Of a stretch of 64,000 nt of DNA, positions 5,791 through 48,191 are shown piece by piece. A program made the position numbers and the translations under genes. Positions within the stretch are counted from its first letter, which is position 1. The number at the start of each line of letters is the position of its first letter. The notes under the pieces were generated by a model. That model made no database searches. It was not told the origin of the DNA and saw only the letters and a list, made by a program, of their open reading frames with translations. Origin of the DNA: Squalus acanthias (lineage: Eukaryota); the NCBI GenBank assembly GCA_030390025.1, contig CM059443.1, positions 48,670,001-48,734,000 of the forward strand, read 5' to 3'.

Positions 5791-6262
5791 CAATCAGTGT
5801 TGGGAGCCCTGCTGATCTTTCTCCTCTCTAACCCAGGGGCACTGAGTCTGATTGTAGTGTCCTCACTGAGATCAGTTCATTCATTCAATTAATTTTGCAG
5901 AAAAAAATCCTGCTGGACAGATAACACAGTTTAGTTATAGTTTTTAAACAGTGTTTATTGAATGACTTTCAATCACACAAGTTCCATTTTGTGTCTCACA
6001 CAGCAGCGATGCGTTGTTCTATCTAAACAGAGTCCAAGGGGGTGAAATTCATTTCCATCAAAGTCGAAACTGGCGAGGACCAATTTCGGCCCCGAGCATG
6101 TAGCCGTTACATTCTTCAACTGTGGGTTCCCATCGCCCACATCCCGTGTCGGTGAGAGTGGAAATCTCACGTTGAATCTGTCTCCGTGTTTTGTGTCGGT
6201 CGTCACAAAACTTCAGAACAGTCTGTGAAAGCCAAGGAGCTGACGCCAGCGGTTTAATATCA

Positions 6263-7036
6263 TTAGCGGAACATTGGGAGAAGATTTCTCCGCACACAAT
6301 CCTGCGCTTCAAGCAGCCTCAGTGTTACAATCTGTGAAAACACACTTGCATTCGAGGGGGGCCGGTTGCGCACCTGCCGTCCATGGTCCGTGCGGTCTCT
6401 GCCTAGATATCAAGAGAGGAGATCACGTTTGATGGGTTCACTTCCAGTGGGGGACAGATAATGAAAGCGGACTGTCTCGTTACATCAGATAAAGCTCCAG
6501 GAGCTTTAGAACAGACACAGTGTTGGCTGAGAGGATTGTACTGAAAGATTGCAATTACTTACATTTTACTCACTGAATTTCACTTTTGCCTCCATCACTA
6601 AGAATACAGAAAATTAAACATGTGAAGCATCAGTAACATAAGATTCAAACAATAATAAACATCTGTAAATGGATTTGCTATTTTTAACCCCTGGATTTGA
6701 ATCCGTCTCTCTACTCTTCAATTTTCGCTCTCACCATCTCCCATCACTCTCCCTTTCCCTCACTCGCCCTCTATCTTTCCCTCCCTCCTTTCTCTCTCTC
6801 TCTATGTCTGTCTCTCTCACTCTACCCCTCTCTCCATCCCTCCTCCTCTCTCTGGACTGTAAGGGTCATTTAGGAAATGATTTACATTCAGCTTCCTGTG
6901 TCAGCCACACATTAGCCTCCTACAGTTATTAAAGAAATGCAACTGGTAAATGTTTCATTGAATGAGAAAAACTAAACAGAAAGTCTGAATGAAAACTGAG
7001 TGAATCACATCCCTGCCACTACCGATGCTGAGGATC
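6263..7036 (-). CDS. Copy 1 cytoplasmic exons (7023-7036 GSSAS; 6886-6919 EANVWLTQEAE; 6263-6402 CRDRTDHGRQ...LLPMFR*), no tyrosine
   Basis: Homologous to the cytoplasmic exons of copies 2/3 with compatible phases. Donors GTAGTG and GTAAAT are weak. Confidence 0.6.
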
Positions 7037-18050: not shown

Positions 18051-18339
18051 TCTTTCCAGGTCTGCGCTGTCCTCAGGCTCCGCTCTGTTTAAGTACTGTC
18101 GCCGGTCCTGCCGCTTATTTCCAGGATCTAACTGGGTCTTGAATAAATCGAAGGTCTCCCTCTCCACTTCCTTACCAGCAACAACAGTCCAAGTGGTGGT
18201 CAGTCTTTGTGTGAAGACATTCTTCACAACATCTGTGTTCAAATTGATTTTCACCAGTTTTAGCTCAAACACATTGTTCTGGTATCTTGACTTACTGTCA
18301 AGTAGAGTCTGGATTGCTGGATCCACAGGGTTCCATATT

Positions 18340-19300: not shown

Positions 19301-19325
19301 GAGTACCTGAATCGATGACCCCAGG

Positions 19326-25716: not shown

Positions 25717-25967
25717 TCAGGTTTCCTCCATTTTCGCATAAATAGGATTTTTTTCCATTTTTAACAGGCCAGGTCGTGGATCATCTTCCTCCAGCTGGGA
25801 CTGTGTCACCGCGTCTACCGGGCAGCCTATCAAAGAATAAATCTGCTCATTGGACAAAGCAACGGGATCCTCCTTACTGTCCTCTTTGGGCTGTGATTGG
25901 CCGCCTGGTTTGAGTTCAGTAGCTGAAGAGGTTTCAACCTGCCGTCCATGGTCCGTGTGGTCTCTGC
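25717..25967 (-). CDS. Copy 2 terminal cytoplasmic exon B (RDHTDHGRQ...EQIYSLI...NPIYAKMEET*)
   Basis: Acceptor ctctcttaatatctag and a 251-nt open frame to TGA. Same length and frame in copy 3, with synonymous differences. Absent from the ORF track. Confidence 0.8.
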
Positions 25968-28900
25968 CTAGATATTAAGAGAGGAGATCACGTTTGATGG
26001 GTTCACTTCCAGTGGGGGACAGATAATGAAAGTGGACTGTCTCATTATTTGAGATAAAGGTCCAGGAGCTTTAGAACAGACACAGTGTTGACTGAAAGGA
26101 TTATACTGAAAGATTGCAACGACTTACATTTTACTCCCTGGTTTTCAGTTTTGCCTCCATCACTAGGAAAACAGAAAAATAAACATGTGACTACTGAGTA
26201 ACATAAGATTCAAACAATATTAAACCATTGTAAGTGGAGACTAGGTGAGGTCACTTTCTTCCCAGGGCCTGGATTTGAGTCCAGCCCAGACTGAAATTCT
26301 CTCATTCATTTTCTCTCTCTCTGTCTCTCTCTCCCTCTGACTCTCTGATTGTCTCTCCGTCTCTCTTTCTCTCTGTCTCTTTCATTCTCTCTCTTTCACT
26401 GTCTCTCTCTGCCTGACTCTCTCTCTCTGTCTGTCTATCTCACTGTCTCTCTCACTGTCTCTGTCTCTCTCCATTCTCTCTGTCTCTCTGTCTGTGTCTT
26501 TTCCCTGTCTCTATGTCTGTCTCTCTCCCTGTCTCTGTCTGTCTATCTCACTTCTCTTTCGCTGTCTCCCTGTCTCTCTCCATTCTCTCTGCCTCTGTCT
26601 CAGTCTCTTTGTGTCTGTCATTCCCTCCCTGTCTCTATGTCTGTCTCACTATGTCNNNNNNNNNNNNNNNNNNNNNNNNNNNNNNNNNNNNNNNNNNNNN
26701 NNNNNNNNNNNNNNNNNNNNNNNNNNNNNNNNNNNNNNNNNNNNNNNNNNNNNNNNNNNNNNNNNNNNNNNNNNNNNNNNNNNNNNNNNNNNNNNNNNNN
26801 NNNNNNNNNNNNNNNNNNNNNNNNNNNNNNNNNNNNNNNNTTGTCTCCCTCTCTCTCTCTTTGTCTCTCTCACTGTCTTTGCTGTGTGAGCAGTCCTCTC
26901 TGCAATGAGTTTTCACAGTTTCAATCCAGTTCCTTGCCTAAAACTGCGCATCATTCAGTAAAATATTTGGACTAAATTGATCATTATGGTCAGATAAGCC
27001 AAAATATTGTCCTGAGAAAGTTTAATAAAAATAACTTCACACGGGCACAGTGAAAGGAGTTATTCTGATGTTGGGATAAAGGAGCACTATCAGGTCAGAG
27101 TTCAGAGTGCTTTACAAGGCCTCCAGCCATTCTATACCTGACTTAGAACTGTTCGGTTGTGAGATTGGCTGCACAGCCTGGAAATGTTTTATGCTGGGTG
27201 GTGGAATAGATTAGTACGGCCCTTTAATATTTTAGGATCTGCCAAGTCCAGATTACTAGGAATAAAAGTCCTCTTTCTATATCTCCCTGGTCTCTCTCTC
27301 TGTCTGTCTCTGTCGCAATCTCTGTCTGTCTCTGTCTCTTTGTCTTTCTCTGTCTCTTTCTCTCTAAGGGTCCTTGATGAAATGAATTTGGTCATCTCGA
27401 TCCAGTTTGTAGTTCGTGTGAGCCACAGTACAAAACTACCCCTAAGTTGGCACTTTCACTCAAACAGGCCATGAAGTGTGAGAAATGAAATGTCCGAGCT
27501 CCCTCCTGAGTTTGGAGTTGAGGAGCATTGTTGGGACAGTCCAGAGGGAGCTTTATGCTGCACCTAATCTGGAGTGCTCCAAATGTGACTGTGTGCCCAC
27601 AGTGGAAAAGTAACCCATTTGCCAGCATGGGCTCCCCTCACCTTCATTACATTAACAATCTCCGAACCCTCCGTCCCAAAACAAACCCGTGGTCAGTGTT
27701 GAACGCTGCCGGGGCCGACAGCTGTCACTCTGCTTACCCTTTGACCATTGACTCTTCGATCATAGAATCATAGAAGATAGGAGCAGGAGTAGGCCATTCG
27801 GCCCCTCTTAGCCTGCTCCGCCATTCAATGCGATCATGGCTGATCATCCAAATTCAGTACCCTGTCCCTGCTTTCTCCCCATATCCCTTTAGCCTTAAGA
27901 AATATATCGAACTCCTTCTTGAATATATTTAATGAATTGGCCTCTACTGCCTTCTGTGGCAGAGAATTCCACAGGTTCACCACTCTCTGGGTGAAGAAAT
28001 TCCTCTTCATTTCTTTCCTAAATGGCTTACCCCTTATCCTTAGACTGTGACCCCTGGTTCTGGACTCCCCGACCATCGGGAACATCCTTCCTGCATCTAG
28101 TTTGTCCTGTCCTGTCAGAATTTTATAAGTTTCAATGAGATCCCCTCTCATTCTTCTAAACTCCAGCGAGTATAAGTCCAATTGACCCAATCTCTCTTCA
28201 TACGTCATTCCTGCCATCCCAGGTATCAGCCTTGTGAATCTTCGCTGAACTTCTTCCACGGCAAGAACATCCTTCCTCAGATAAGGCAACCAAAACTGCA
28301 CACAGTACTCAAGGTGTCGTCTCACCAAGGCCCTGTACAACTGCAGCAAGACATCCTTGTTCCTGTACTCAAACCCTCTCGCTATGAAGGCCAACATACC
28401 ATTTGCCTTCTTAACCGCCTGCTGCACCTGCATGCTTACCTTCAGCGACTGGTGCACAAGGACACCCAGGTCTCGTTGCACTTCCTCTTCTCCCAATCTA
28501 TTGCCATTCAGATAATAATCTGCCTTTCTGTTTTTGACACCAAAGTGGATAACCTCGCATTTATCCACGTTCTATTGCATCTGCCACGCTTCTGCCCAAT
28601 CACCCAACCTGTCCAAATCATCCTGGAGTTTCTCGGCATCCTCCTCACAGCACACACGCCCACCCAGTTTTGTGTCGTCTGCAAACTTGGAGATATTACA
28701 TCTAGTTCCCTTGTCTAGATCATTAATATATATTGTGAATAGCTGGGGTCCAAGGACCAATCCCTGCGGTACCCCACTAATCACTGCCTGCCACTCGGAA
28801 AAAGACCCGTTTATTCCAACTCTTTGCTTTCTGTCTGCCAACCAGTTCTCTATCCAAGTCAATACCTTGCCCCCAATCCCATGTGCCTTAACTTTACACG

Positions 28901-31900
28901 CTAATCTCTTATGCGGGACCTTATCAAAAGCCTTTTGGAAGTCCAAATACACCACATCCACTGGTTCTCCCTTATCTATTTTACCAGTTACATCCTCAAA
29001 AAATTCCAGTCGATTAGTCAAGCATGATTTACCTTTTGTAAATCCATGTTGACTTTGTCCGATCCTGTCACTGTTTTCAAGTGCTCAGCTATTACATCTT
29101 TTACATCTTGAATAATGGACTCTAGCATTTTCCCCACTACCGATGTCTGTAATTCCCTGTTTTCTCTCTACCACCCTTTTTGAATAGTGGGGTAACATTA
29201 GCTACCCTCCAATCCATGGGTACTGTTCCAGATTCCATCGAATGTTTGAAGATGATCAGCAATGCATCTACTATTTCTAGGGCCACTTCCTTAAGTACCC
29301 TAGGATGTAGATTATCAGGCCCTGGGGATTTATCGGCCTTCAATCCCTTCAATTTCCCTAACACCATTTCCCTACAAATACTGATTTCTTTCAGTTCCTC
29401 CCTTTCATCAGACCCTATGTTCCCCAACATCTCTGGGAGGTTATTTGTGTCCTCCTTTGTGAAGACAGAACCAAATTATGTATTTAATTGGTCTGACATT
29501 TCTTTGTTCCCCATTATAAGTTCCCCTGATTCTGACTGCAAGGGACCTACGCTTGACTTCACCAATCTTTTCCTCTTCACATATCTATAAAAGCTTTTAC
29601 AGTCAGTTTTTATGTTCCCTGTAAGCTTACTCTCATATTCTATTTTCCCCTTCTTAATTAATCCCTTTGTCCTCCTTTGTTGAATCTTAAACTGCTCCCA
29701 ATCCTCAGGGTTACTGCTTTTTCTGGCCAATTTATATGCCCTCTCCTTGGATCTTATCCTATCCCTAATTTCCCTTGTTAGCCACAGTTGAGTCACCCTT
29801 TTTGTTTTATTCTTATGCCAAACTGGGATGAACAAATTCTGTAGTTCGTCCATGCGGTCTTTGAATGTTTGCCATTGCCTATCCACCGTCAACCCTTTGA
29901 GTGACATTCCCCAATCAATCCTACCCAACTCACACCTCATACCATCGTAGTTTCCTTTATTTAAATTCAGGACCCTAGTCTCTGAGTCAACTACTTCACT
30001 CTCCATCCTAATGAAGAATTCTATCATATTATGATCGCTCTGACCCAAGGGGCCTCACACAACAAGATTGCTAATTAATCCTTTCTCATTGCATAATACC
30101 CAGTCTAAGATGGCCTGATCTCTGGTTGGTTCCTCGACATATTGGTCCAGGAAACCATCCCGTAAACACTCCAGGAATTCCTCCTCCATAGTATTGTTAC
30201 TAATTTGGTTAGCCCAATCTATATGTAGATTAAAGTCACCCATGATGACTGCTGTGCCATTATTGCACGCTTCTCTAATTTCCCTTTTAATGCCATCCCC
30301 AACCTCCGCATTACTGTTTGGAGGTCTTTTTATCACTCCCACTAACGTTTTCTGCCCCTTGTTATTTCTCAGTTCAACTCATACAGATTCCACATCATCA
30401 GAGCTAATATCCTTCCTTTCAATTGTGTTAATCCCCTCTTTAACCAGCAATGCTACCCCACCTCCCTTTCCTTTTTGCCTGTCTTTCCTGAATATTGAGT
30501 ACCCTGGATGTTGAGTTCCCAGCCTTGGCCACCCTGGAGCCATGTTTCGGTAATCCCAATCAAATCATATTCGTTTACCTGTATTTGCGCAGCTAATTCA
30601 TCCACCTTGTTCCGAATGCTCCTTGCATTAAGACACAAAGCCTTCAGGCTTGTTTTTTTAACGCTCTTAGACCTATTAGAATTAGTATTTACTGTGGCCA
30701 TGTTTGATTTAACACATTGCTTTCTCTGACTGCCACTTTTGTTTTTCTCCTTCCTATCTTTTGCTTTTATCCTTGTTTCCCTTTCCTCTGTCTCCCTGCT
30801 CAGGTTCCCAACCCCCTGCCATTTTAGTTTAAACCCCCTCCCAGAGCATGAGCAAACACTCCCCCTAGGACATCGGTCCCGGCCCTGCCCAGGTGTAGAC
30901 CGTCCGGTTTGTACTGGTCCCACCTCCCCCAGAACCAGTTCCAATGCCCCAGGAATTTGAATCCCTCCCCCTTGCACCATTCCTCTAGCCACGTATTCAT
31001 TTGAAATATCCTTCTATTTCTACTCTGACTAGCACGTGGCACTGGTAGCAATCCTGAGATTACTACCTTTGAGTTCCTATTTTTTAATTTACCTCCTAAC
31101 TCCCTATATTCTGCTTTTAGGACCTCATCCCGTTTTTTACCTATATCGTTGTTACCTATGTGCACCACGACAATTGGCTGTTCAGCCGCCCCTTCCAAAA
31201 TGCTCTGTAGCCACTCTGAGACACACTTGACCCTTGCACCAGGGAGGCAACATACCATCCTGGAGTCTCGTTTGCGGCTGCAGAAACGCCTATCTATTCC
31301 CCTTACAATAGAATCCCCTATCACTATAGCTCTCCCACTCTTTTTCCTCCCATCCTGTGCAGCAGAACCACCTACGGTGCTAGGAAGTTGGCTGCTGCTG
31401 TCTTCCCCTGATAAGCCATCTCCCTCAACAATATCCAAAGCGGTATATCTGTTTGAGAGGGGGATGGCCACAGGGGACCCCTGCACTACCTGCCTGCGCC
31501 TATTACTCTGCCTGGTGGTCACCCATTCCCTTCCAAACAGTACACATGCTCTGTAGAGTCAGGCTTTGGGCCAGTGCTCTCCATTCCTTCACCAGGCCTT
31601 GGCTGGCTCGATGGCGTTGGAACTCTCGTCACCGAGTACGCAACATGGTCGTTGTCATCGCTCTGATCCCTTCTGGGAACCACAGAGTACGGGAAACCTA
31701 GACAGAAGGACGAGTAGACGATGTGTGCTTTTAGTTTCAACTCTCAAAGGGACAGGCTCGGAAGAGCTGGGCAGTAATTCTAGTCACTTACATTCAGCCA
31801 CCTGTGTCAGCTGCACATCACCAGCCCTACAGTTAGTAAAGAAAAGCAACCTGTAAATGTTCCATGAAATGAGGAAAACTATACAGAAAGTCTGCCCGAA

Positions 31901-34900
31901 AACTGAACGAATCCCATCCCGACCTGGGTCCTGGTGCTGAGGATCCTTCACAACACATGCCATAAGATTGGAAAGGTAAATTTAAAAATCTTTGTAAGGA
32001 GTCTGCACTTCCAATTTTCTAGATTTAGAGCAAACATTTTAAAGCTCTTGCTTACCTTTGGCAGCTTGTCGTTTCCTTCGGATTATGCAAAGTGCCCCAA
32101 CAATGCAAAGTACCCCAACAATGCAAATGATTACAACCGCACACGCTATGGTTACTTTAACAGGTGTGGCAATGACTGGACCTGCAGAGGAGAAGCAACA
32201 TTAAATTCAGTCTGTGCAATCCCGTGTTATATGTACAGCTGATCACACTGGTTACCTGGGCTGAGGAACAGACATTTCCGGTTAGAATCTGGAATAGTGC
32301 AATGGCGAGGGAAGTAAATCAAAGCAACTTATAACGGCTGCAAACTGTACGACTGATCTGGAAACTCTCAGTTTGAATTATTGATATTAAATGATTCACA
32401 TCATATTCTAGATTGTATCACTTACTTTGAGTATTTGTACAAGTAAAGCTGCTGGTCACTGAGGAGATTCCAGATGTTGAGGTGGGGGTGTCTGAAGTCT
32501 CTGCACTCGCCTCTGTCACAGTAAGGGAGATGTTTGCTGCAATCTTCCAGACAGGTTTCCTTGAATCCTGACCGCGGACAGCACAGAGATACCTCCCAGT
32601 GTCCACCACATCCGCTGAGTGAATAGTAAGGTTGTGAGACTGGCGTCTTGCAGTAAGATTGTCTGAGCTTTGGGCAGAGATTCTTTGTGACGACTTTCTG
32701 TCCACACAGCAGCGTGTGTTAGAATGTGCCTCATAATCCTCAATGTGAACAGAGTGCAGACACTTGTTGATGTTTCCAGATCTGATCCAAAACAGAGTGA
32801 AAGCGAGGTTTTTTGTATTCTCAAACTGGCAGGGTAAAGTCACATTTTCTCCCTTTGACACTGTCAGCGACCAGGAGTTTTCTTCAGTAGAAAATATTTC
32901 ATCCGAATCAATAAACAACATTGAAAAGAACATTTGTTACTAATTATTTAGAAGTGCTGTTCCCACATGTTATCCAGCTGTTTGATGTAAGTGTGAGTCT
33001 GTCTGTAACTAGCTGTATTATCAGCAGTGGAGACAGCAGGCGTGGGCCAGGGCCAAATCCTTGTTTGGAATATTTGTCTGATTTTCCCACCGTTAGATTA
33101 AACATTCCCCAGCTAGAGGCAGATTGTGTAAGATCAGGAAACACTCGGGGACTGAGAGCAAGGAGCGAGAAGACAGGACAAATAATGAAAGATCGAACAC
33201 ACAAAGGCAAAAGACAGGGGCAGACACTAAAGGACAGAGACAAGGGGGGGGGGGGGGGAAGACTTCAAACTCGCTTCTCTGTATCTCGATACCTGGGAAT
33301 TTTATCCCCCCCACCCCCCCAGATACTTCCCCGATCCCTCCCCCGATATTGCCCCAGTACACGTACCACTCTGGATTATCACAAAGAACAAGTCGTGGTT
33401 TTCACATCCCTCTCCTGACAGTGTGAGCCAGGACGGACACTTCGATGATCCTCCTTCTGTGGAATCCTGAGCCGAGCAGGTAAATACCGTCGAGTTAAAC
33501 GTCTTCACATCGAATGTCAGAGACTGAGACTCCGTTTGTTCTTCATTTAATTTGCATTTTCTGCACTCTGGCTTACTGTTTGTCCAATTAGGACTGATAT
33601 TTTCACAAAATTGCATTTCCTTCTCTTTATTCTCACATGTATTGTCAATTTCTGCTCCGAGATCAGTGAAGCTGCACAAGGTGACTTCATCCCCAGCACC
33701 AGTGGTCACGTTGCACTGCAGAATGGTGACATCTCCTGGTCCTCGGGAGAAGAGATAAGTGGATCCTGCAGGGAAAGGGCAGAATCGGATAGAGTTAAAT
33801 AACATTCCACACAGGAAAGATCATTAAACACTCAATCTGACACAAGCCTCTCACAGTAAATGAGCCTAGTGAGACCCCCACCACCCCCTTTACACATTGT
33901 GATAGACTGCCCTCCCATTACACAGTCTGAATCGAGTCCACACCACCCCCTCTCCCTGCCTCCATCACACAGGCCTGGACAGAGATCCCACCCCCACCAT
34001 AACACATTTTGATCGAGACCTCACCCCCCATCCCCTTCATAGCCTGAATAGAGACCCCCCCACCCTTTCACTGAGCCTGACTACAGTCATACATAGTACA
34101 TAGGTTGAGGTTATTGGAAGTCAATCATCTCAGCTCCAGGACATCGCTGCAGGAGTTCCTCAGGGCAGTGTCCAAGGCCCAACCATCTTCAGCTGCTTCA
34201 TCAATGACCTTCCCTCCATCATGAGGTGACACGTGGGACTGTTCACTGATGATTGCACAGTGTTCTGCTCCATTTCCAATTCCTCAGATAATGAAGCAGT
34301 CCGTGCCTGCATGCAGCAAGACCTGGACAACATCCAGGCTTGGGCTGATAAGTGATAAGTAACAGTCACACCACATAATGACCATCTCCAACAAGAGAGA
34401 GCCTAACCACCTGCCCTTGACATTTGATGGCATTACCATCATCGACTCTCCCACCATTAACATCCCGGGGTCACCATTGACCAGAGACTTAGCTGCAGGA
34501 ACCACATTACTACTGTGGATACTAGGGCAGGTCAGAGGCTGGGTAGTCTGCGGCAAGTGGCTCACCTGACTCCCCAAAGCCTTTCCACCACCTATAAGGC
34601 ACATGTCAGGAGAGTGATGAAATGCTCTCCACTTACGTGGATGAGTGCAGCTCCAAAAACACTCAGGAAACTCAACACCATCCAGGACAAAGCAGTCCAC
34701 TTGATCGGCTCCCTATCCGTCCCCTTAAACATTCACTCCCTCCACCACTGGCACACCATGGCTGCAGTGTGTACCATCTACATGATAGTACCTCGCCAAG
34801 GCTTTTACGGCAGTATCTCCCAAACCCCCGACCTTCACCACCTATAAGGACAAGGGCAGCAGGTGCTTGGGAACACCATCACCTCCAAGTTTCCTTAAAA

Positions 34901-36698
34901 GTCGCACAACATTCTGATTTGGAAATATATTGCTGTTCCTTCATTGTTGCTGGGTCAAAATCCTAGAATTGCCTCCCTAACAGCATTGTGGAGCACCTTC
35001 ACCATTTGGAGTGCAGAAGAAAGGCCAAACCCAACTGACCTTCTCAATGGCAACTAGGGATTGGGCAATAAATGCCGGAATTGCCAGTGACACCCACATC
35101 CCGAAGAAAGATAAAATAAATATGAATTAATCATCCACTTAATGAGGGAACTTAATTTAAGACGTGGCATTGAATACTGGTTCCTAACTTTCAGGGAGAT
35201 TATAATAACTGATAATTGGTGTGAGGACATTAGTTAGTCCTGTAAAAGGAAAACATATGGGTAAATATTATCTTTTTAGTTGGGGTTTCTGTAGAAGGAG
35301 GGAATTAGCTGAAGTTGAATGGTGCAGACCAGAGAGATATTTATAATTAAAAGTATCACTTGATGGAGAGCAATTATATGTAACAAGAGCCGAATTATTT
35401 ATAAGGTAATGAAGTAGAGTTATACCAATCTCGTTAGCCGAATGGAAAAAGAGCTCGTTAGTTAGGAAACCAGCTGTTAGCTAAAGTTATCGATAAGGAC
35501 TCAGTTCAATTGGACTCTCCTTATATGGAGTTGTTTTTCAATGCAGAAATGTGCAAATTGTCACATAGTCGGAGTGAGGGGTAAGTACAAAAACTGGCAG
35601 AGTGTAATCAGTATTTGGATTCGAAGGGATTTGATTGGCCTAAAACACTGAACATTAACACGTTTGAGTCGCCAGCCATCAGCTCTTGTAAGTTCTTGTG
35701 GCTCTTTGCCAGAATCAACTCACGGCCTCGCTCTCCCCACAGTTCTCCTGTATCTTTCACAGCTTCAAATGTTTATCCAATTCTCACTTAAAAGATAGAA
35801 TCATAGAATCATAGAAAGTTACAGCACGGAAGCAGGCCATTTCGGCCCATCGTATCTGCCGCGGCCAACAAAGAGCCATCCAGTCTAATCCCACTTCCCA
35901 GCTCTTGGTCCGTAGCCCTGCAGGTTACAACATCCCAAGTGCACATCCAAGTACTTTTTAAATGTGGTTAGGGTTTCTGCTTCTACCACCCTTTCAGGCA
36001 GTGAGTTCCAGACCCCCACAACCGTCTGGGTGAAGAAATTCCCCTCAAATCCCCATTAAACCTCCCACCAATTGCTTTAAATCTGTCCCCCCTGGTTTTT
36101 GACCCCTCTGCTAAGGGAAATAGGTCCTTTTTGTCCACTTTATCTCGGCCCCTCATAATTTTATACACCTCAATAAGGTCTCCCCTCAGCCTCCTCTGTT
36201 CCAAGGAAAACAAACCCAGCCAATCCAGTCTTTCCTCATAGCTAAGATTCTCTACTCCCGGCAACATCCTTGTAAATCTCCTCTGTACCCTTTCTAGTGC
36301 AATTATATCTTTCCTGTAATGTGGTGACCAGAACTGCACGCAGTACTCTAGCTGAGGCCTAACTAGTGTTTTATACAGTTGATAAGATCCAAAGCTCTCT
36401 GCCTCAACCATTCGCTGTGGTAAAGCATTCCCTGCTCCAACAACAGACATTTGTAAAGACATTTCTCCTAACCTCTCTCCTCACTGTCTTAGTGCCATTT
36501 TTAAACTGATGACCCGTGATTAAACCGTGTTAAAATGCCACAGCAAGGACTGTGATGCGAGCACATTAAACATATTCACAAGAACACCACTGTTTTATAT
36601 CCTTATCCTATGCTGAAGATTAACTGAAAGTATTAATCCTTACCTGTAACATGTTGGAACAGAAGGAAAAGACCCACAAACACAGCACCGAGCGCCAT
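25717..36698 (-). CDS. IgSF paired-receptor-like gene, copy 2 (Tyr-motif tail; exon A interrupted by CR1; possibly altered or partly pseudogenised)
   Basis: Leader 36644-36698, D1 33367-33765, D2 32426-~32908, stalk 32256-32288, TM 32056-32181, cytoplasmic 31924-31945 and 31792-31826, exon A 31534-31697 (remainder 27738-27760), exon B 25717-25967. AATAAA at 24046-24051. Confidence 0.75.
26310..26880. repeat. (TC)n/(TCTG)n low-complexity tract containing assembly gap 26656-26840
   Basis: Direct; 185 Ns. Confidence 0.95.
27763..31533 (-). mobile_element. CR1 LINE (ORF1 part plus ORF2) inserted in exon A of copy 2
   Basis: Flanks rejoin as cttcgat-ca-aacagtac, as seen uninterrupted at 49726-49742. 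Confidence 0.95.
31534..31697 (-). CDS. Copy 2 cytoplasmic Tyr exon A, 5' part (CFPYSVV...VAYSVT...EHVYCL), broken by CR1
   Basis: Acceptor ccttctgtctag. Matches copy 3 exon A up to YCL, then runs into CR1; the rest of the exon is at 27738-27760. Confidence 0.8.
32056..32288 (-). CDS. Copy 2 stalk micro-exon (32256-32288) and TM exon (32056-32181, GPVIATPVKVTIACAVVIICIVGVLCIVGALCIIRRKRQAAK)
   Basis: Phase 1-1 exons with canonical splice sites; uncharged hydrophobic core. Confidence 0.85.
32426..32908 (-). CDS. Copy 2 V-set D2 plus stalk exon (5' acceptor uncertain)
   Basis: ORF 32418-32933 carries DTGRYLC. The acceptor homologous to copy 1 reads TTG, so the true exon start is probably shifted. 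Confidence 0.8.
33367..33765 (-). CDS. Copy 2 Ig-like D1 exon
   Basis: Near-identical to copy 1 D1 (6-nt in-frame deletion); 399 nt, same splice sites. Confidence 0.8.
36644..36698 (-). CDS. Copy 2 leader exon MALGAVFVGLFLLFQHVT(G)
   Basis: Same peptide as the copy 1 leader; donor GTAAGG. Confidence 0.85.
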
Positions 36699-39600
36699 TT
36701 CACATTCCTAGCTCGTTTTTTGCTCTTCAGAAGCTGGGTGGCTGTTTCACCATCACATTCTGATCTGTGAGATAAAGAGAGAATTGTAACTTTTAATGAT
36801 GGTGGAAGAGAAAAGCAGCTTCCTGTTTGATCAACTCAGATGATATGTGCGCACTGACATTGTATTAATGGGCCTGGGGACAGAGTTTGGGCTGTTCGTT
36901 CAACCCTCCGACCACAGAAGTGTCTAGAGAGGCGAGAGGCTCTGAAATACAAAGTGTACACTATGAGTGTGTCACTGTGCACCACAGTGATAGTGGGCAA
37001 CACACTCGGCAGACATGTTAACAGCCCCCTAGTACGATGTAGATAATAACTATCTGGAGCACAAGAGCTTTTAGTCAACAGTAACATTGGGTCACTCCCA
37101 CTCTCGGAGAGGATTAACATGGGGGACAGTTTGGATGTTGGGTTACAAGATCACAACATCAATACAGATGAGAGCGTTAGCTCCTCCCCTATCATGCTAT
37201 AGAATGGTTACAGCACAGAAGGAGGCCATTCGGCCTGTCGAGCCCGTGCCGGGTCTCTGCAAGAGCACTTCAGCTCGTCCCACTCCCCCGCCGTTTCCCC
37301 GTGGCCCTGCAATTGTTTTCCTTCAGGTACTTATCCAATTCCCTTTTGAAAGCCACAATTGAGTCTACCTCCACCATCCTTTCAGGCAGTGCATTCCAGA
37401 TCCTAACCACTGCCTGCGTAAAAAAGTTTTTCCTTATGTCGCGTTTGGTTCTTCTGCCAATCACCTTAAATCTGTGTCCTCTGGTTCTCGACCCTTCCAC
37501 CAATGGGAACAGTTTCTCTCTATCTACTCTGTCCAGACCCCTCATGATTTTGAATACCTCTATCAAATCTCCTCTCAACCTTCTCTGTTCTAAGGAGAAC
37601 AATCCCAGCTTCTCCAGTCTATCCACGTAACTGAAGCCCCTCATTCTGGAACCATTCTCATAAATCTTTTCTGCACCCTCTCTAAGGTCTTCCTAAAGTG
37701 CGGTTCCCAGAATTGGACACAATACTCCAGTTGAGGCCGAACCAATGTTTTATACAGGTTCATCATAACTTCCTTGCTTTTGTACTCTATACCTCTATTT
37801 ATAAAGCCTGTATGCTTTTTTAACCACTTTCTCAACCTGCCCTGCCATCTTCAGCGATTTGTGCACATATACCCCCAGGTATCTCTGTTCATGCACGTCC
37901 TTTAGCATTGTACCCTATACTTTATGTTGCCTCTCCTTGTTCTTCCTACCAAAATATATCACTTCGCACTTTTCTGTGTTAAATTTCAAGTGCCACGTGT
38001 CCACCTATTTCACCAGCCTATCTATGCATTTTTGAAGTCTTATCCCTTTCCTCCTCACTGTTCGCAAAACTTCCAAGTTTTGTGCAAATTTGAAATAGTG
38101 CCGTGTACACCCATGTCCAAGTCATTAATATATATCAAGAAAAGCAGAGGTGCTAGTGCTGACCCCTGGGGAACACCACTGTATATCTTCCTCTCATCCG
38201 AAAAACAACCATTCACCACTACTCTCTGTTTCCTGTCACTTAGCCAATTTTGTATCCATGCTGCCACTGTCCCTTTTATTCCATGAGCTTCAACTTTGCT
38301 GGCAAGACTATTATGTGGCACTTTATCAAACTCCTTTTGGACGTCTATGTTCACCACGTCAACCGCATTGCCCTCATCAACCCTTTCTGTTACCTCATCA
38401 AAAAACTCGATTAAGTTAGTTAAACATGATTTGCCTTTAAGAAATCCATGCTGCCTTTCCTTAATTACTCCACACTTGTCCAAGTGACTGTTAATTTTGT
38501 CCCTGATTATCGTTTCTAAAAGCTTCCTCACTACTGAGGTTAAACTGACTGGCCTGTAGTTGGTGGGTTTATCCTTACACCCTTTTTTGAACAAGGGTGT
38601 AACATTTGTAATTCTCCAGTCCTCTGGCACCACTCCTGTATCGAAGGAGGATTGGAAGATTATGGCCAGTACCTCCGCAATTTCCACCTTAACTTCCCTC
38701 AGCATCCTAGGATGCATCCCATCCGGTCCTGGTGACTTACCTACTTTAAATACAGCCAACCTTTCTAGTACCTCTTCTTTATCAATTTTTATCCCATCCA
38801 GTATCTCCACTACCTCCTCTTTCACTATGACTTTGGCAGCATCTTCTTCCTTGGTGAAGACAGATACAAAGTACTCGATCAGTACCTCAGCCCTTTTATG
38901 AGCCAGCTCTCCCGTATCGCCATGACATCATATTCCCATGTGGCTATTTGCTCCTGCAGCTCCCCAACCTTATTCACCAGGCTTCGTGCATTTACACACA
39001 TGCACTGTAAACCTCTCTTAGACCTTCTTATATTCTCTCTTAGTCTGACACCACCTAATACCTTACTATTTCTTATCTAGTGCTACCTGTCTCTCCCAAC
39101 CCTTTGTGCACTTTGTTTCTCCCTTCGAATGGAACATCCTGGTTCCCATCCCCCTGCAAAATTAGTTCAAACCCTCCCCAACAGCACTAGCAACCTCTCC
39201 GCCCCACCCCGCGAGGATATTGGTCTCGGCTCTTTTGAGGTGCAACCCGTCTGGCCTGTACAGGTCCCACCTCCCCCAGAACAGGTCCCAATGTCCCATG
39301 AATCTAAAGCCCTCCCTCCCACACCATTTCTCCAGCCACGCATTCATCTGCTCTATTCTCCTATTTCTATACTCAGTAGCTCGTGGCACCGGGAGTAATC
39401 CGGAGATTACTACCTTTGAGGTCCTGCTTTGTAATCTCTTTCCTAGCTCCCTAAAATCTGCCTGCAAGGCCTCATCCCTCTTTCTACCTATGTTGTTGAT
39501 ACCGATATGCACCACGACCTCTGGCTGCTCCCCCTCCCCCCTCAGAATGTTCTGCAGCCACTCAGTGACACCCTTGACCCTGGCACCAGGGAGGCAACAT

Positions 39601-41171
39601 ACCATCCTGGAACCACATCTGCAGGCGCAGAAACGCCAAGCCGTTCCCCCAACTATCGAATCCCCTACCACTATTGCCTCTGTACAGCTGAGCCACCCGT
39701 GGTGCCGTGGACTTGGCTCTGGCTGTACTCCCCAGAGGAACTACTGCCCTCACCAGTATACCAGTTAGAGAGTGAGATGCACTCAGGGGACTCCTGCACT
39801 ACCTGCCTGGTCCTCCTTGTCTGTCTGACGGTCACCCATTCCCTCTCTGCCAGCACACTCCTATGCTGCGGCATGACCACCTTCTGAAACGTGCTATCTT
39901 TCCAGGTCTGCGCTGTCCTCAGGCTCCGCTCTGTTTAAGTACTGTCGCCGGTCCTGCCGCTTATTTCCAGGATCTAACTGGGTCTTGAATAAATCGAAGG
40001 TCTCCCTCCCCACTTCCTTACCAGCAACAACAATCCAAGTGGTGGTCAGTCTTTGTGTGAAGACATTCTTCACAACGTCTGTGTTCAAATTGATTTTCAC
40101 CAGTTTTAGCTCAATCACCTTGTTCTGGTATCTTGACTTACCGTCAAGTAGAGGCTGGATTGCTGGATCCACAGGGTTCCATATTTTTTTTAACTCATTT
40201 TTCAGTATGTGGGCATCAAGGGCAATTGCGGAATTTATTGCCCATCCCTAGTTGCCCTTGAGATCGTGATAGGCCCTCTCCTTGAACTGCTGCTGTCAGT
40301 GTCGTGAGGTTGCTCCCAAAGTGTTGTTAGTTCAGGAGTTCCAAGATTTTGACCCAGCGACAATGAAGGAACTGCCAATTTATGTCCAAGTCAGGATGGT
40401 GTGTGACTTGGAGGGGAACTTGGAGGTGGTGGTGTGTCATGCACCTGCTGCCCTTGTCCTTCTTAAGTGGGGGAGGTTGCGGGTTTGGGAGGTGCTGTCG
40501 AAGAAGCCTTGGTGAGTTGCTGCAGTGCAACTTGTAGATGGTGCACACTGTAGCCACGTTGTGCCGATGGTGGGGGGACTGAATGTTTAAGGTGGTGGAT
40601 GGGATGCCAATTAAGCAGGTTGCTTTGTCTTGGATGGTGTCGAGCTTCTTGAGTGTTGTTGCAGCTGCACTCATCCAGGCAAGTGGAGAGTATTCCATCA
40701 CACTCCTGACTTGTACCTTGTAGGTGGTGGAGAGACTTTGGGGAGTCAGGAGGTGAAACACTCGCCGCAGAATATGACCTGCTCTAGTAGCCAGGGATTA
40801 TATGTGGCTGTTCCAGCTATGCTTCTGGACAATTGTGACCCCCAGGATGTTGATGGTGGGGGATTCAGGGATGTTAATGCCATTGAATGTCAAGGGGAGG
40901 TTGTTACGCTTTCTCTTGTTGGAGATGGTCATTGTCTGGCACATAGGTGGTGCAAATGTTAATTGCCAGTTATCAGCCCAGGCCTGGATGTTGTCCAGAT
41001 CTTGCTGCATGCGGACATTGACGGGTTCATTATCAGAGGAATTATGAAAGGAGTTGAACACTGAAAACATCAGCAAACATCCCCACTTCTGACATGATGA
41101 TGGAGGGAAGGTCAATGATGAAGCAGCTGAAGATCGTTGGGCCTAGGAGTACCTGAAGCGATGACCCATGG

Positions 41172-44100
41172 GACATAGAAACATAGAAGATAGGAGCAGG
41201 AGTAGGCCATTCGGCCCCTCAAGCCTGCTCCGCCATTCAATGTGATCATGGCTGATCATCCAAATTCAGAACCCTGTCCCTGCTTTCTCCCAATATACCT
41301 TGATCCCTTTAGCCTTAAGAAATATATCCAACTCCTTCTTGAATATATTTAATGAATTGTCCTCTACTGCCTTCTGTGGTAGAGAATTCCACAGGTTCAC
41401 CACTCTCTGAGTGAAGAAATTCCTCCTCATTTCTGTCCTAAATGGCCTACCTCTTATCCTTAGACTGTGACCCCTGGTTCTGGACTCCCCGACCATCGGG
41501 AACATCCTTCCTGCATCTAGTCTGTCCAGTCCTATCAGAATTTTATAAGTTTCAATGAGATCCCCTCTCATTCTTCTAAACTCCAGCGAGTATAAGCCCA
41601 ATCGACCCAATCTCTCCTCATACGTCATTCCTGCCATCCCAGGTAGCAGCCTGGTGAATCTTCGCTGAACTCCTTCCATGGCAAGAACCTCCTTCCTCAG
41701 ATAAGGCGACCAAAACTGCACACAATACTCAAGATGTGGTCTCACCAAGGCCCTGTACAACTGCAGCAAGACATCCTTGTTCCTGTACTCAAACCCTCTC
41801 TCTACCATTTGCCTTCTTAACCTCCTGCTGCACCTGCATGCTTACCTTCAGCGACTGGTGCACAAGGACACCCAGGTCTCGTTGCACTTCCCCTTCTCCC
41901 AATCTATTGCCATTCAGATAATAATCTGCCTTTCTGTTTTTGACACCAAAGTGGATAACCTGACATTTATCCACGTTATATTGCATCTGCCATGCTTCTG
42001 CCCAATCAGCCAACCTGTCCAAATCATCCTGGAGTTTCTCGGCATCGTCCTCACAGCACACACGCCCACCCAGCTTTGTGTCGTCTGCAAACTTGGAGAT
42101 ATTACATCTAGTTCCCTTGTCTAGATCATTAATATATATTGTGAACAGCTGGGGTCCAAGGACCAATCCCTGCAGTACCCCACTAGTCACTGCCTGCCAC
42201 TCGGAAAAAGACCCGTTTATTCCAACTCTTTGCTTTCTGTCTGCCAACCAGTTCTCTATCCAAGTCAATACCTTGCCCCCAATCCCATGTGCCTTAACTT
42301 TACACGCTAATCTCTTATGCGGGACCTCATACAAAGTCTTTTGAAAGTCCAAATACACCACATCCACTGGTTCTCCCTTATCTATTTTACCAGTTACATC
42401 CTCAAAAAATTCTAGTAAATTAGTCAAGCACGATTTACCTTTTGTAAATCCATGCTGACTTTGTCCGATCCTGTCATTGTTTTCCAAGTGCTCTGCTATT
42501 ACATCTTTTTTAATGGACTCTAGCATTTCCCCCACTACCGATGTCAGGCTTACCGGTCTGTAATTCCCCATTTTCTCTCTACCACCTTTTTTGAATAGTG
42601 GGGTAACATTAGCTACCCTCCAATCCATGGGTATTGTTCCAGATTCCATCGAATGTTGGAAGATGATCAGCAATGCATCTACTATTTCTAGGGCCACTTC
42701 CTTAACTACCCTAGGATGTAGATTATCAGGCCCTGGGGATTTATCGGCCTTCAATCCTGCCAATTTCCCTAACACCATTTCCCTACAAATACTGATTTAT
42801 TTCAGTTCCTCCCTTTCATCAGACCCTATGTTCCCCAACATCTCTGGGAGGTTATTTGTGTCCTCCTTTGTGAAGACAGAACCAAAATATGTATTTAATT
42901 GGTCTGACATTTCTTTGTTCCCCATTATAAGTTCCCCTGATTCTGACTGCAAGGGACCTTTGCTTGATTTCACTAATCTTTTTCTCTTCACATATCTATA
43001 AAAGCTTTTACAGTCAGTTTCTATGTTACCTGCCAGCTTACTCTCGTATTCTATTTTCCCCATCTTAATTAATCCCTTTGTCCTCCTTTGTTGAATCCTA
43101 AACTGCTCCCAATCCTCAGGTTTACTGCTTTTTCTGGCCAATTTATATGCCCTCTCCTTGGATCTTATGCTATCCCTAATTTCCCTTGTTAGCCACGGTT
43201 GAGTCACCCTTTTTGTTTTATTCTTATGCCAAACTGGGATGAATTCTGTTGTTCATCCATGCGGTCTTTGAATGTTTGCCATTGCCTATCCACCGTCAAC
43301 CCTTTGAGTGACATTCCCCAATCAATCCTACCCAACTCGCGCCTCATACCATCATAGTTTCCTTTATTTAAATTCAGGACTCTAGTATCTGAGTCAACTA
43401 CTTCACTCTCCATCTTAATGAAGAATTCTATCATATTATGAACGCTCCGAACCAAGGGGCCTCATAGAACAAGATTGCTCATTACATAATACCCAGTCTA
43501 AGATGGCCTGCTCTCTGGTTGGTTCCTCGACATATTGGTCCAGGAAACCATCCCGTAAACACTGTAGGAATTCCTCCTCCACAGTATTGTTACTAATTTG
43601 GTTAGCCCAATCTATATGTAGATTAAAGTCATCCATGATGACTGCTGTGCCCTTATTGCACGCTTCTCTAATTACCCTTTTAATGCCATCCTCAACCTCC
43701 GCATTACTGTTTGGAGGTCTTTTTATCACTCCCACTAATGTTTTCTGCCCCTTGGTATTTCTCAGCTGTACCCATACAGATTCCACATCATCAGAGCTAA
43801 TATCCTTCCTTACTATTGTGTTAATCCCCTCTTTAACCAGCAATGCTATGCCACCTCCCTTTCCTTTTTGCCTATCTTTCCTGAATATTGAATACCCCTG
43901 GATGTTGAGTTCCCAGCCTTGGCCACCCTGGAGCCATGTTTCCGTAATCCCAATCAAATCATATTCGTTTACCTCTATTTGCGCAGCTAATTCCTCCACC
44001 TTATTCCGAATGCTCCTTGCATTAAGACACAAAGCCTTCAGGCTTGTTTTTTTAACGCTCTTAGACCTATTAGAATTATTATTTACTGTGGCCAAGTTTG

Positions 44101-44775
44101 ATTTAAACCGTTGATTTCTCTGACTGCCACTTTTGTTTTTCTCCTTCCTATCTTTTGCTTTCATCCTTGTTTCCCTTTCCTCTGTCTCCCTGCTCAGGTT
44201 CCCAACCCCCTGCCATTTTAGTTTAAACCCTCCCCCAGAGCACTAGCAAACACTCCCCCGAGGACATCGGTCCCGGCCCTGCCCAGGTGCAAACCGTCCG
44301 GTTTTTACTGGTCCAACCTCCCCCAGAACTGGTTCCAATGTCCCAGGAATTTGAATCCCTCCCCCTTGCACCATTCCTCTAGCCACGTATTCATCTGAAA
44401 TATCCTTCTATTTCTACTCTACCTTTGAGGTCATGTTTTTTAATGTACCTCCGAACTCCGTATATTCTGCTTTTAGGACCTCATCCCCTTTTTTACCTAT
44501 ATTGTTGGTACCTATATGCACCACGACAACTGGCTGTTCACCCTCCCCTTCCAAAATGTTCTGCAGCCGCTCTGAGACATCCTTGACCCTTGCACCAGGG
44601 AGGCAACACACCATCCTGGAATCTCGTTTGCGGCCGCAGAAACGCCTATCTATTCCCCTTACAATAGAATCCCCTATCACTATAGCTCTACCCCTCTTTT
44701 TCCTCCCGTCCTGTGCAGCAGGGCCACCCCTGGTGCCAGGAAGTTGGCTGCTGCTGCCTTCCTCTGATAAGCTCT
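41172..44775 (-). mobile_element. CR1 LINE, duplicate of 19326-22830
   Basis: Same insertion site and flanks; esterase, endonuclease and RT ORFs. Confidence 0.92.
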
Positions 44776-47700
44776 GAGGTCATTGGCCTCAAAAAACCAC
44801 AACCATCTTCCTTTGTGCCTTCAAATCCACTCCTTTGATCAAACTTTTGGTCACCCCTTCTATTATCTCCTTCTTTAGCTCAGACTCCAATTTTTCCTAA
44901 CACCTCCCTATGGGGACATGTTGGGAACAGTTCAGTTTTTCCACCAGTTCCTCTTTGTCATCTTTTGTCTTGGGAAGTTTGAACCAGAGGAACAAATGAA
45001 AAAGAGGAAGTCCCCTGAATGTGATAAATATATATCTAACTCGAGGTTTATTAGTTGCAGTTCTTCCACCCAAAGAAAAGGTCCCACCAGCCTAGAAATA
45101 TCTGAGAACTGTTACTGCAGATCACACAGTATAAATGCGCCAAATTATTAACCAGCAGGAAAACTCAAAGACTGAATCCATTTGTATATCCGGCTGAATC
45201 TCACACCCACTTCGATACCAATAAGCTGTAAATAGCCAAGCCTTTTACACTTGCATCATTGCCCATCATCAGTTCGAATTTCACAATCATCGCACACTTC
45301 CTGCCACTTTGTATGGAGGAGGCTTTAGTACTGAGTTCATTAGGATTCATTTCACTTCAGTACTTGTATGTGTGGTGTTCATATTGTAAATAACACCCAT
45401 TGTTCCAGAATTAGGTGCAGAAGCCAAGGGCTGGACAATGAGCCAAATGCCAGGGTTATGAGGGTAAATTCACTGACTCTATCCCTCCCCGCACCCCGCC
45501 AGCAGTGAGCTCTGCTTGAAGGAGACACAATTTAGCAGAGGGCCACAGTGCTAACCCCTGACCCCTGTTTGAGCATGGCTGCCCACAAGGAGTGTGGGAT
45601 TGGTGAATCTAGAGTGAAAGTTCTTTTATCTTACTGAGCCATGCATTAAACATTTCCAACATTAAAATATAAACTTCTAATTTCAATGTAGTTACACTGT
45701 TTTATGCTTTGCAAAATACTATTCAGAGATCGGCTGGGGGCAGGCAATTTGTACCAAACTTTCCCTTACACAATCATGAATTTCTACCTCAGCGTGGGTT
45801 CCGCGTCCCCCTCCGCCCCCTCTCCACACCCCATTGCCCCCTCTCCACAGCCCATTCCCCCCACCCAACTCCCTCCTCCCACCTCCTCCTGAGTCTGATT
45901 GCAGTGTCCTCACTGAGAGCAGTTCATTCATTCAATTGGTTTGGCATAAAATTCCTGCTGGACAGATAACACAGCTCGTCATTTAGTTATAATTTTTAAA
46001 GTGTTTATTGAATCACTTTCAATCGCACAAGTTCCATTTTGCGTCTCACACACCAGCGATGCGTTATTCTATCTAAACAGAGTCCAAGGGGGTGAAATTG
46101 CTCTTCGCCAGTAGCATGAAATTCATTACGAATCGATATTGGCCAGGACACCGGGGAGAACTCCCCTGCTCTTCTTCGAAATAGTGCCACGGGATCTTTT
46201 ACATCACCTGAGAGAGCAGACGGGTCTCAATTTAACGTCTCATCCGAAAGACGTCACCTCTGACAGTGCAGCACTCCCTCAGTACTGTAAAACATAGAAA
46301 CATAGAATCTAGGAGCAGGAGTAGGCCATTCGGCCCGTCGAGCTTGCTCCGCCATTCAATACGATCATGGCTGATCATCCAAATCCAGTACCCTGTCCCT
46401 GCTTTAATCCCCACAGTACACATATCCCACCCTACCCCCGTAACCCCACGTATTTAATTCCCCCTAACATATCCCATCCTATCCCCATAACCCCACATAT
46501 TTAATCCCCCCTAACACTAAGGGTCAATTTATCATAGCCAAATCAACCTAACATGTACTGGAGTGTCAGCCTAGATGATGTGCTCAGGTCTCTGGAGTGC
46601 CATTCAAATTTCTGGATATGCATTCTCAGCTTGTCCGAGATTCCACAGCGCGAGCGTGAATCCGTCTACATGCTCCCACGTTTAGCATGGCTCCCTGTAT
46701 TCTGCTCCAACAACGACACCAGTGTGATTTTCTGTTTCCCACACCAGCCGTCGCTACAGCTTCCCCATCCCCCCACACCCGCCCGACTCACACTGGGAAT
46801 TGAGTGCTGTGCTGTGAGACCATGTGTGAGAACTGGGCTGGGCTGGACTGGGCAAAAACACATTTCGCGTTGCTATGCTGCAAGCAGTGGAGAGAGGAGA
46901 CTGTCATCCAGGCATTCTGGACTGCATTCAAAGCCAGATGCCAGAGAGAAAAAGTGAAAGGGTATCGTGCTAAATCTGGCGCCAGCTTAGCACAGACTGG
47001 CACTCTGACCCAGAGAGGTCACAAGGTCAGGTGGTGCGGGAAAAGTTGTCTCTGCACCAAACCCGTGCTGTACCAGACCTGGGCCTGCTCGACACTGACA
47101 CTGGGGCCTAGAAATTGGCTCCGGGTGCAGCACACACCGCACACACCCAATGGGGCCGGCGGCAGGAACACGGCACATTGGACCCCCGGCCTCATTAGTT
47201 TATCAGTAGCGAGCTGCAGGCTCCAGTCACGGCCCCAGAGGCAGCTCACAGGAGGAGGGAGCAAGATTGGCCGACTGGGACCTGAGCTGATTCCGGGATT
47301 GGGGGGGGACAGAGGGATGAGGCAAATGGGAGGGGGGCACGCGAGCAGTGTCTGGTAGTGGCTGACGGTTTTAATGTGGGGCCGGGAGGAGCACGCCTGC
47401 TTCCTCCTGATTCACATTCAGGTAAGGATTTGTTTTAAAACTTACTCTTTTGGTGGCGGCCTCCAGCGGTCTCTTTAAGGACCCCTGGTTAGGCCTGGTG
47501 AGGCCGCGTGGAGACCTGGTCACCCTGAATTCAGCAGGCCCAAGGCCGGCAGCGTTCAGGAAAAGCCAGTCTCCGGCTTGGGTCCTAGAACAAGCGGTAG
47601 GCCCCTCATTAGCATATTCAAGGTGCCTAACGCCTGTTTCAGGCGATCGCCAGGGACGCCTCTACAGTGCCCGAACCAATAAGGCAACAGACGTGTTTCT

Positions 47701-47940
47701 GATGCTATTCGGCCATGGAGGGTTGGCCCCCTAAATTGGACCTCTTTTGCACCCATTATCCACCCAGAAAAACGGTGCAACGATGTCCAATTAACCCCCA
47801 CCCCGGGTGTCTGCAGTGGGAAAATGTTCAATACCCAGTGCTGACCATGATGAGTGTAAAATATATGTATTTTTTAAATCTTGTACCACTATGAGTTTCA
47901 ACAAGTTATCCGTTGCCTTTCTCCTGTTACTCGATTATGC

Positions 47941-48191
47941 TCAGGTTTCCTCCATTTTAGCATAAATAGGATTTTCTTCCATTTTTAACGGGCCAGGTCG
48001 TGGATCATCTTCCTCCAGCTGGGACTGTGTTACCGCGTCTACCGGGCAGCCTATCAAAGAATAAATCTGCTCATTGGACAAAGCAACGGGATCCTCCTTA
48101 CTGTCCTCTTTGGGCTGTGATTGGCCGTCTGGTTTGAGTTCAGCAGCTGAAGAGGTTTCAACCTGCCGTCCATGGTCCGTGTGGTCTCTGC
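47941..48191 (-). CDS. Copy 3 terminal cytoplasmic exon B (QIYSLI, PIYAKM)
   Basis: 251-nt open frame conserved with copy 2. Confidence 0.8.

Follow-up and report, generated by a model that had tools for sequence, protein, structure and literature searches.

The 64,000-nucleotide stretch of the Squalus acanthias genome analysed here (the window; C19:48670001–48734000, contig CM059443.1, genome 3.7 Gb) holds three copies of a receptor gene, all on the reverse strand; bare positions below are window coordinates. Each copy has a head, consisting of a Cys-rich N-terminal domain (D1) and a V-set immunoglobulin (Ig) domain with a Ser/Thr stalk (D2), followed by a transmembrane (TM) exon and tail exons. 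Copy 1 carries Arg and Asp in its TM segment and has a short tail, whereas the TM segment of copies 2 and 3 is neutral and their tails bear Tyr motifs, as a sequence-only reading of the window had described. That reading took copy 2 for a chimera, in which one unequal crossover within a two-gene ancestor had placed the activating head of copy 1 on the tail of copy 3. The discordance between the head and the tail of copy 2 is real, and ectopic exchange near the stalk is its likely cause. However, copy 2 is probably a damaged long-tail member of a 16-unit array, in which Arg and Tyr-tail forms share their heads via repeated exchange.

A genome search with the head of copy 2 gave 34 matches, all on C19 and in two clusters, A and B. 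Exon mapping in 200 kb around the window and in 200 kb at 50.34–50.54 Mb resolved these into 16 units, comprising 12 headed genes and four headless TM-tail cassettes (the head of A9 and the tail of B0 were counted as one gene), where the sequence-only reading had assumed a two-gene ancestor. There are two head types, h1 (copy-1-like) and h3 (copy-3-like, with other introns), whose D1 exons are 7% apart. The tails likewise come as two modules. The Arg module has Arg and Asp at the TM, lacks tail exon T1 and reads exon T2 in another frame to a 10-residue end, while in the long module a neutral TM is followed by five Tyr motifs. Every combination of head and tail occurs: h1-long in five genes (A2, copy 2, A9/B0, B1 and B4), h1-Arg in three (copy 1 = A7, B2 and B6), h3-long in three (A1, copy 3 = A5 and B5) and h3-Arg in one (A3). 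Any set of one h1-Arg, one h1-long and one h3-long gene mimics "the head of one, the tail of the other", and the window holds exactly such a set. Each of the four Arg genes has a headless long-tail cassette immediately downstream of it. These cassettes (A4, A8, B3 and B7; e.g., C19:48661703–48667365) begin inside D2 and have most splice sites intact, and exon T3 is open in three of the four.

Self-comparison of the window showed 96.0% identity between 10107–21738 and 31948–43562, with homology going on in blocks to 26374/48591. Copy 2 is collinear with copy 1 above ~32300, as had been claimed, and the head of copy 3, with its different introns, shares exon areas only (53462–54154 and 54498–55055). 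The TM and tail of copy 2 match copy 3 with 95.4% identity (31534–32388 vs. 49733–50587). When the stalks of all 16 units are compared, copy 2 agrees with copy 1 at 15/15 diagnostic sites between 32384 and 32311, and with the long-tail class at 59/63 between 32177 and 31950. The block in between (32310–32178) contains the breakpoint proposed earlier at 32280–32300, but it is near-identical in all units, and the switch can be assigned to the block as a whole only.

Several landmarks in this region did not hold. The stalk codon CGG (32279), offered as a marker of the copy 3 side, is a CpG site that also occurs in the Arg-type gene B6 and is absent from both sisters of copy 2. These sisters, A9 and B1, carry the same junction and the same long interspersed nuclear element (LINE) in T1, and the trio has shared derived sites at 32351 and at the TM start. 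A breakpoint at the TM start, taken from comparing three genes, was dropped because 32295, 32224 and 32180 fail to separate the classes across the 16 stalks. The 15 "copy-1" intron sites are also found in the first stalk intron of those long-tail genes in which an extra stalk exon is retained. They are thus a sign that this exon was lost, not that the gene descends from an Arg gene, and the pre-TM intron was given up as a parsimony marker of such ancestry. A 33-nt block that contains the CGG codon, first considered a stalk exon, is skipped by contigs from public sequencing runs of RNA type, where the TM exon follows straight on the end of the stalk. The stalk repeat of copy 3 was also dropped as a recent deletion junction, since its exon is predicted in Pristiophorus, Mustelus and Heterodontus as well.

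Neither neighbour in the window turned out to be the closest relative of copy 2. In a nearest-unit scan by 400-bp windows, copy 1 was the best match in 0/39 scan windows over the head and upstream region (32401–48000) and copy 3 in 0/15 over 25601–32400. Nine of these 15 lie within the LINE, which copy 3 lacks, and two tail windows containing N were skipped. The distances of copy 2 are uneven, 0.8–3.5% to copy 1 and, in the tail, 1.9–6.9% to copy 3. Its divergence from copy 3 agrees between head and tail (D1 7.1%, T1–T2 intron 6.9%). The statement that all tail exons match copy 3 had missed both this intron and the LINE. From B1, copy 2 differs by 0.4% over 39.0–47.9 kb and by 2.0–4.3% over the rest of the head. 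A maximum chi-square analysis placed a second break near 39283, with copy 2 equal to B1 at 42/111 sites on the left and 222/231 on the right (reached in 0/200 permutations). Together with the reciprocal chimera A3, this second break speaks against a single crossover event.

The tail tree (12 of the 13 tail rows, the A9 tail being represented by B0) was split with 98/99 support into h1-headed tails (A2, B4, copy 2, B1, B0 and the headless A4 and B7) and h3-headed tails (A1, copy 3, B5 and the headless A8 and B3). The tail of copy 2 thus groups with h1-headed long tails, and a clade of the copy 2 and copy 3 tails was rejected (approximately unbiased test, p-AU 9e-8), so copy 3 is not supported as the tail donor. 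Nearest to the tails of the trio are B7, A2, A4 and B4. The four Arg tails are 0–1.9% apart yet sit on both head types, while long-tail lineages match their heads in depth, which suggests that the Arg lineage mostly takes its heads from long-tail genes. The pattern fits the reverse of the transfer first proposed, that of an activating head to a Tyr-motif tail, at least as well. The clearest young chimera of the array lies outside the window. This gene, A3 (C19:48754666–48772769), has a copy-3-type head on an Arg tail; it is h3 at 33/33 columns (15 of them one indel) up to D2 offset 247 and of h1/Arg type at 6/6 from D2 offset 471, and its Arg tail is 0–1.9% from those of the other Arg genes.

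Table 1. Exons, lesions and other features of copy 2, with the extents of copies 1 and 3 (window coordinates).
Feature	Position	Strand	Remarks
Copy 2 leader exon	36644..36698	-	ATG and GT donor; joint to D1 appears in RNA-type contigs as a loose end
Copy 2 exon D1, Cys-rich N-terminal domain, h1	33367..33765	-	Private in-frame 6-nt deletion
Copy 2 lost D2 splice acceptor	32909..32910	-	TG; AG in 8/12 headed genes; second AG option, 6 nt further, also lost (GG)
Copy 2 exon D2, V-set Ig domain and Ser/Thr stalk	32426..32908	-	PF07686 E 5e-8 for copy 1 D2; model matches V domains
133-bp block just before TM exon	32178..32310	.	Near-identical in all 16 units; head/tail switch inside
Copy 2 TM exon, neutral long-tail type	32056..32181	-	
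Small tail exon m1	31924..31945	-	Joint in RNA-type contigs; donor GTC in copy 2, GTA in 11 other long-tail units with m1 located
Small tail exon m2	31792..31826	-	In RNA-type contigs
Tail exon T1 (5' portion, with three Tyr motifs)	31534..31697	-	Read-through stops 4 codons into LINE
LINE inserted in T1, frames broken	27761..31533	-	3.77 kb; same insertion in A9/B0 and B1
Tail exon T1, 3' part, severed by LINE	27738..27760	-	
Tail exon T2	26128..26162	-	
Tail exon T3, two Tyr motifs, last NPIYAKM, frame open	25717..25967	-	
Copy 1 (A7), h1 head, Arg/Asp TM exon 10219-10335, without T1	6200..14852	-	T2 6563-6597 in other frame, giving 10-residue end
Copy 3 (A5), h3 head, extra Ser/Thr stalk exon 53383-53487, neutral TM 50255-50380	47941..62307	-	T1-T3 intact; LINE in intron after stalk exon
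Upstream tract, second recent exchange or duplication	39001..47900	.	0.4% from B1; 2.1-2.9% from four other units aligned there

Copy 2 is a damaged long-tail gene whose product is predicted to be at most tail-truncated or V-less (Table 1). Alone among the 12 heads it has lost both AG options of the D2 acceptor, the very position at which RNA-type contigs of the family splice (joint 32908–33367). The LINE in T1 is presumably CR1-like, judging from its motifs, and the T2 acceptor is lost in B0 and B1. Copy 2 might still give a product by using an in-frame AAG ~25 nt into D2 or a weak GT that lies in frame within the LINE. RNA-type contigs also show the m1 and m2 tail exons, the splice from TM to T2 of the Arg form and a LINE-free splice from T1 to T2, and both the Arg and the long-tail splice forms are present in those of two runs. 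One contig from a second sample shows the LINE-free T1 form only; in such a contig search, absence of the LINE junction proves nothing. The short end derived from T2 in the Arg form is shared by three other shark species.

The pair of receptor forms is not restricted to S. acanthias. A V-domain search gave 20 shark proteins, 19 of them named uncharacterized, and both forms were found in Heptranchias, Pristiophorus, Heterodontus, Scyliorhinus, Mustelus and Hemiscyllium. Arg at the TM (usually with Asp) is seen in 4/4 Arg genes of the array and in these six other species. In a TM tree of 15 rows and 41 columns, the seven Arg segments, from seven species, fell on one side and the eight long-tail segments on the other (100/96). 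The V domains behave differently: those of the Arg and long-tail forms are 92–97% identical within 6/6 species as against 68% and 67% across species, and a single clade of Arg V domains was rejected (p-AU 1e-4). The V-domain tree was made without three proteins lacking a TM and without 8 of the 12 array heads, and P0009 was assigned to the Arg type by hand. With TM segments sorting by type and V domains by species, the pair is older than the sampled lineages and the heads have likely been re-matched in each. Copy 2 as a snapshot of how matched pairs arise is thus not supported, as both TM types predate the sampled shark lineages. This type split is also far older than those compared in rodents or primates. 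The receptor proteins of the array fall among the shark proteins, beside Pristiophorus, with moderate support (90/84), and in the Arg-type protein of Heptranchias (P0001) the D1-D2 pair is predicted as a tandem duplicate.

Taken as one array, the 16 units would form two matched sets, an h1 set of three Arg and five long-tail genes and an h3 set of one Arg and three long-tail genes. Copy 2 would be a long-tail partner of the copy 1 head type and copy 3 that of A3. Recurrent ectopic gene conversion, along with unequal crossover, is the likely process that keeps the heads matched, with exchange ending inside the 133-bp block that precedes the TM exon. That tracts end at the TM exon may be due to the ~19% distance between the two TM types and to the loss of signalling type that any longer tract would bring. 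Heads would pass mainly from long-tail genes to the Arg lineage, a point we hold less firmly. The Arg form is predicted to signal through an adaptor with an immunoreceptor tyrosine-based activation motif (ITAM), and the long form through its own tyrosines.

Several points weigh against this explanation. The tail of copy 2 is itself a mosaic that a single tail tree oversimplifies, and its post-TM intron and T1 are only 1.7–2.5% from all long-tail genes, copy 3 included. The direction of the exchange in the trio can be read either way: all four Arg genes and the three trio genes are without the extra stalk exon, and this would fit a crossover in an Arg stalk equally well. Clusters A and B could be two joined haplotypes instead of one array. 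Shared function could add to the grouping of TM segments by type in a tree of 41 columns. The proteins of the other sharks are gene predictions, and the RNA-type status of the sequencing runs is a guess of the tool, no run being recorded as RNA. Finally, the canonical immunoreceptor tyrosine-based inhibitory motif (ITIM) is (S/I/V/L)xYxx(I/V/L), and none of the five tail motifs (FPYSVV, VAYSVT, HVYCLI, QIYSLI and PIYAKM) fits it fully, for which reason we do not call the long form inhibitory in this species. The consensus does fit LPYSVV, LPYSVI and VAYAVV in the tails of some other sharks.

On the question of one array, the LINE of A9 stops at C19:48643406 and that of B0 resumes at the adjacent LINE base at C19:50528384, with a gap at each point. 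The two halves are placed 1.9 Mb apart, and a scaffolding cut or misorder is likely. From this we infer that clusters A and B are one 16-unit array cut in scaffolding. The same cut, and the fact that some blocks of A and B are at least 99% alike, would also suit an origin of the copy 2 junction as a haplotype mis-join or other assembly artefact, and no contig of the public runs bridges the pre-TM block, as is expected for short-word contigs in a block of 16 copies. Yet the same junction occurs in three units, two of which belong to cluster A, that differ by 2–6% over most segments, and copy 2 has private alleles on either side of it. Moreover, a contig of one public DNA run, which may come from the source sample, is identical to copy 2 over 32279–32409. 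An artefact is thus very improbable. Even harder to credit is the chimera in its original form, a single stalk crossover between copies 1 and 3 in a two-gene ancestor that gave birth to a matched pair. Seen in the window alone, 10107–32388 and 31948–50587 do resemble a single tandem duplication with its junction at the stalk. Against this stand the 16 units, the presence of both forms in six other sharks, the uneven divergence from the supposed parents with other units closer, and the rejected tail clade.

The strongest competitor keeps the mechanism of the sequence-only reading with other parents inside the large array. In this case the trio goes back to one unequal crossover inside the pre-TM block, with an h1 Arg gene giving the head and short stalk and either an h1-type long-tail gene or a headless cassette like B7 or A4 as the other parent; LINE gain and duplication followed. 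In its favour, the extra stalk exon is absent from the trio as well as from all four Arg genes, the trio has common derived sites in addition to the LINE, its tail is nearest B7, A2, A4 and B4, and a headless cassette stands behind every Arg gene. However, the short stalk could also be obtained by deletion between the two repeated stalk introns of a gene like A2 or B4, whose first intron has the diagnostic sites in common. A2 and B4 moreover carry h1 heads on long tails without the junction of copy 2, and the V exons of the trio fail to group with the Arg genes as a set. We regard such a single origin as possible but distinctly less probable than repeated exchange throughout the array. A more speculative idea, which we consider rather unlikely, gives the headless cassette behind each Arg gene a working part in a family whose pair is kept matched via one short block throughout shark evolution. 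The cassette would be either an alternative 3' end, giving either receptor from one promoter and head, or an in-cis donor for tail swaps.

Other features of the array were recorded as well. Multi-kb minisatellite arrays lie on either side of cluster A (C19:48609220–48614222 and 48852306–48864000). An 18-nt repeat unit varies in copy number in the neutral TM exon, shifting TM length by 6 residues; the exon is 108 nt long in A4, B1 and B4, 126 nt in most long-tail units and 144 nt in A9. The Arg gene B2 has a frameshift in D1 (403 nt, C19:50474898–50475300). In the h3 gene A1, the V exon (C19:48811852–48812296) is mostly of h1 type and represents a conversion tract; A1 also has a 36-nt deletion at the end of D2, a broken T1 donor and a truncated T3. 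Pooled pN/pS (nonsynonymous to synonymous) values among copies were 1.03 for D1, 1.41 for D2, 0.94 for T1 and 0.58 for T3, from non-independent pairs and descriptive only.

Comparison with known systems shows that the chimera claim reduces to a known process, the homogenization of heads in paired receptors combined with birth and death in an array. In KLRC/NKG2, KLRI, Ly49 and PIR, merohomogenization of paired receptors leaves patchy tracts that reach into introns (PMC3210942). As in KLRC, Ly49 and PIR, the ligand-binding parts here group by species and the TM and tail by signalling type, and as in PIR and KIR the activating form has a TM arginine and a short tail (PMC3210942). Several marks of such homogenization are found here, namely near-identical ectodomains within species, TM and tail types older than the species with ectodomains that group by species, and a basic TM with a short tail; a canonical ITIM in the long form is not among them. 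Unlike the mammalian cases, this is an unnamed shark family whose type split is common to both sampled major shark lineages, and its modes of signalling are predictions.

In FCGR2C, unequal crossover joined 5' exons from one paralog to 3' exons from a second, and with two identifiable parents and one segmental duplication of >98% identity this gene represents the model behind the earlier claim (PMC6786274). In contrast, no one unit stands out as the parent of copy 2 on either side, and its junction recurs in two sisters. It does not show a 5' part nearest one flanking parent and a 3' part nearest the other at a uniform age. SIGLEC11/16 and CD300A/C are closer in kind: their ectodomains were converted repeatedly and in a lineage-specific way, the exons so converted are under relaxed constraint, and non-functional copies are frequent (PMC5701461, PMC12447643). 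The array resembles them in its likely recurrent ectodomain conversion and its non-functional copies, but they are two-gene pairs with known ligands and canonical ITIMs, and no sequence relation beyond the V fold was found in the material compared.

Within cartilaginous fish, skate MDIR, which is CD300/TREM/pIgR-like, is a multigene family of activating and inhibitory V-domain receptors, and the array is likewise a multigene family of V-domain receptors (PMC3031540). The 60 best PDB sequence matches, with many V domains among them, included neither a CD300 nor a TREM chain, and those to pIgR were weak (E ~0.006–0.01). No relative among the names looked up was called MDIR or CD300; the relation to MDIR was judged without MDIR sequences. 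The V-set assignment of D2 is based on PF07686 (33.5 bits for copy 1 D2, cut-off 26) and on the model of a turtle relative, which matches a V domain with Z 13.6 and a root mean square deviation of 2.0 over 108 residues. The D1 of copy 1 gave no Pfam match; the shark model of this domain has low confidence, and that of the turtle relative is mainly beta strands.

A profile search gave 88 representatives at E ≤ 0.001. Ten of these were looked up, from sawshark, sturgeon, catfish, lungfish, frog, turtle, lizards, alligator and kiwi, and all are uncharacterized or hypothetical; no mammalian name was among the relatives looked up. With the kiwi protein as query, 19 of the 20 matches were named uncharacterized, unnamed or Ig-like. 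Relatives from sturgeon to birds (P0022–P0123) have a conserved Cys-Cys V domain and tail tyrosines. Within the open library that was searched, no paper on the receptor family was found, supplements and the original MDIR paper being outside that search. The array thus belongs to a family that is uncharacterized or hypothetical in nearly all named matches, with relatives from sharks to birds and the signature of paired receptors in six shark species. Merohomogenization, which has been described in mammals, would extend to cartilaginous fish, and the mapped 133-bp exchange block and the young natural chimera A3 are at hand for its study.

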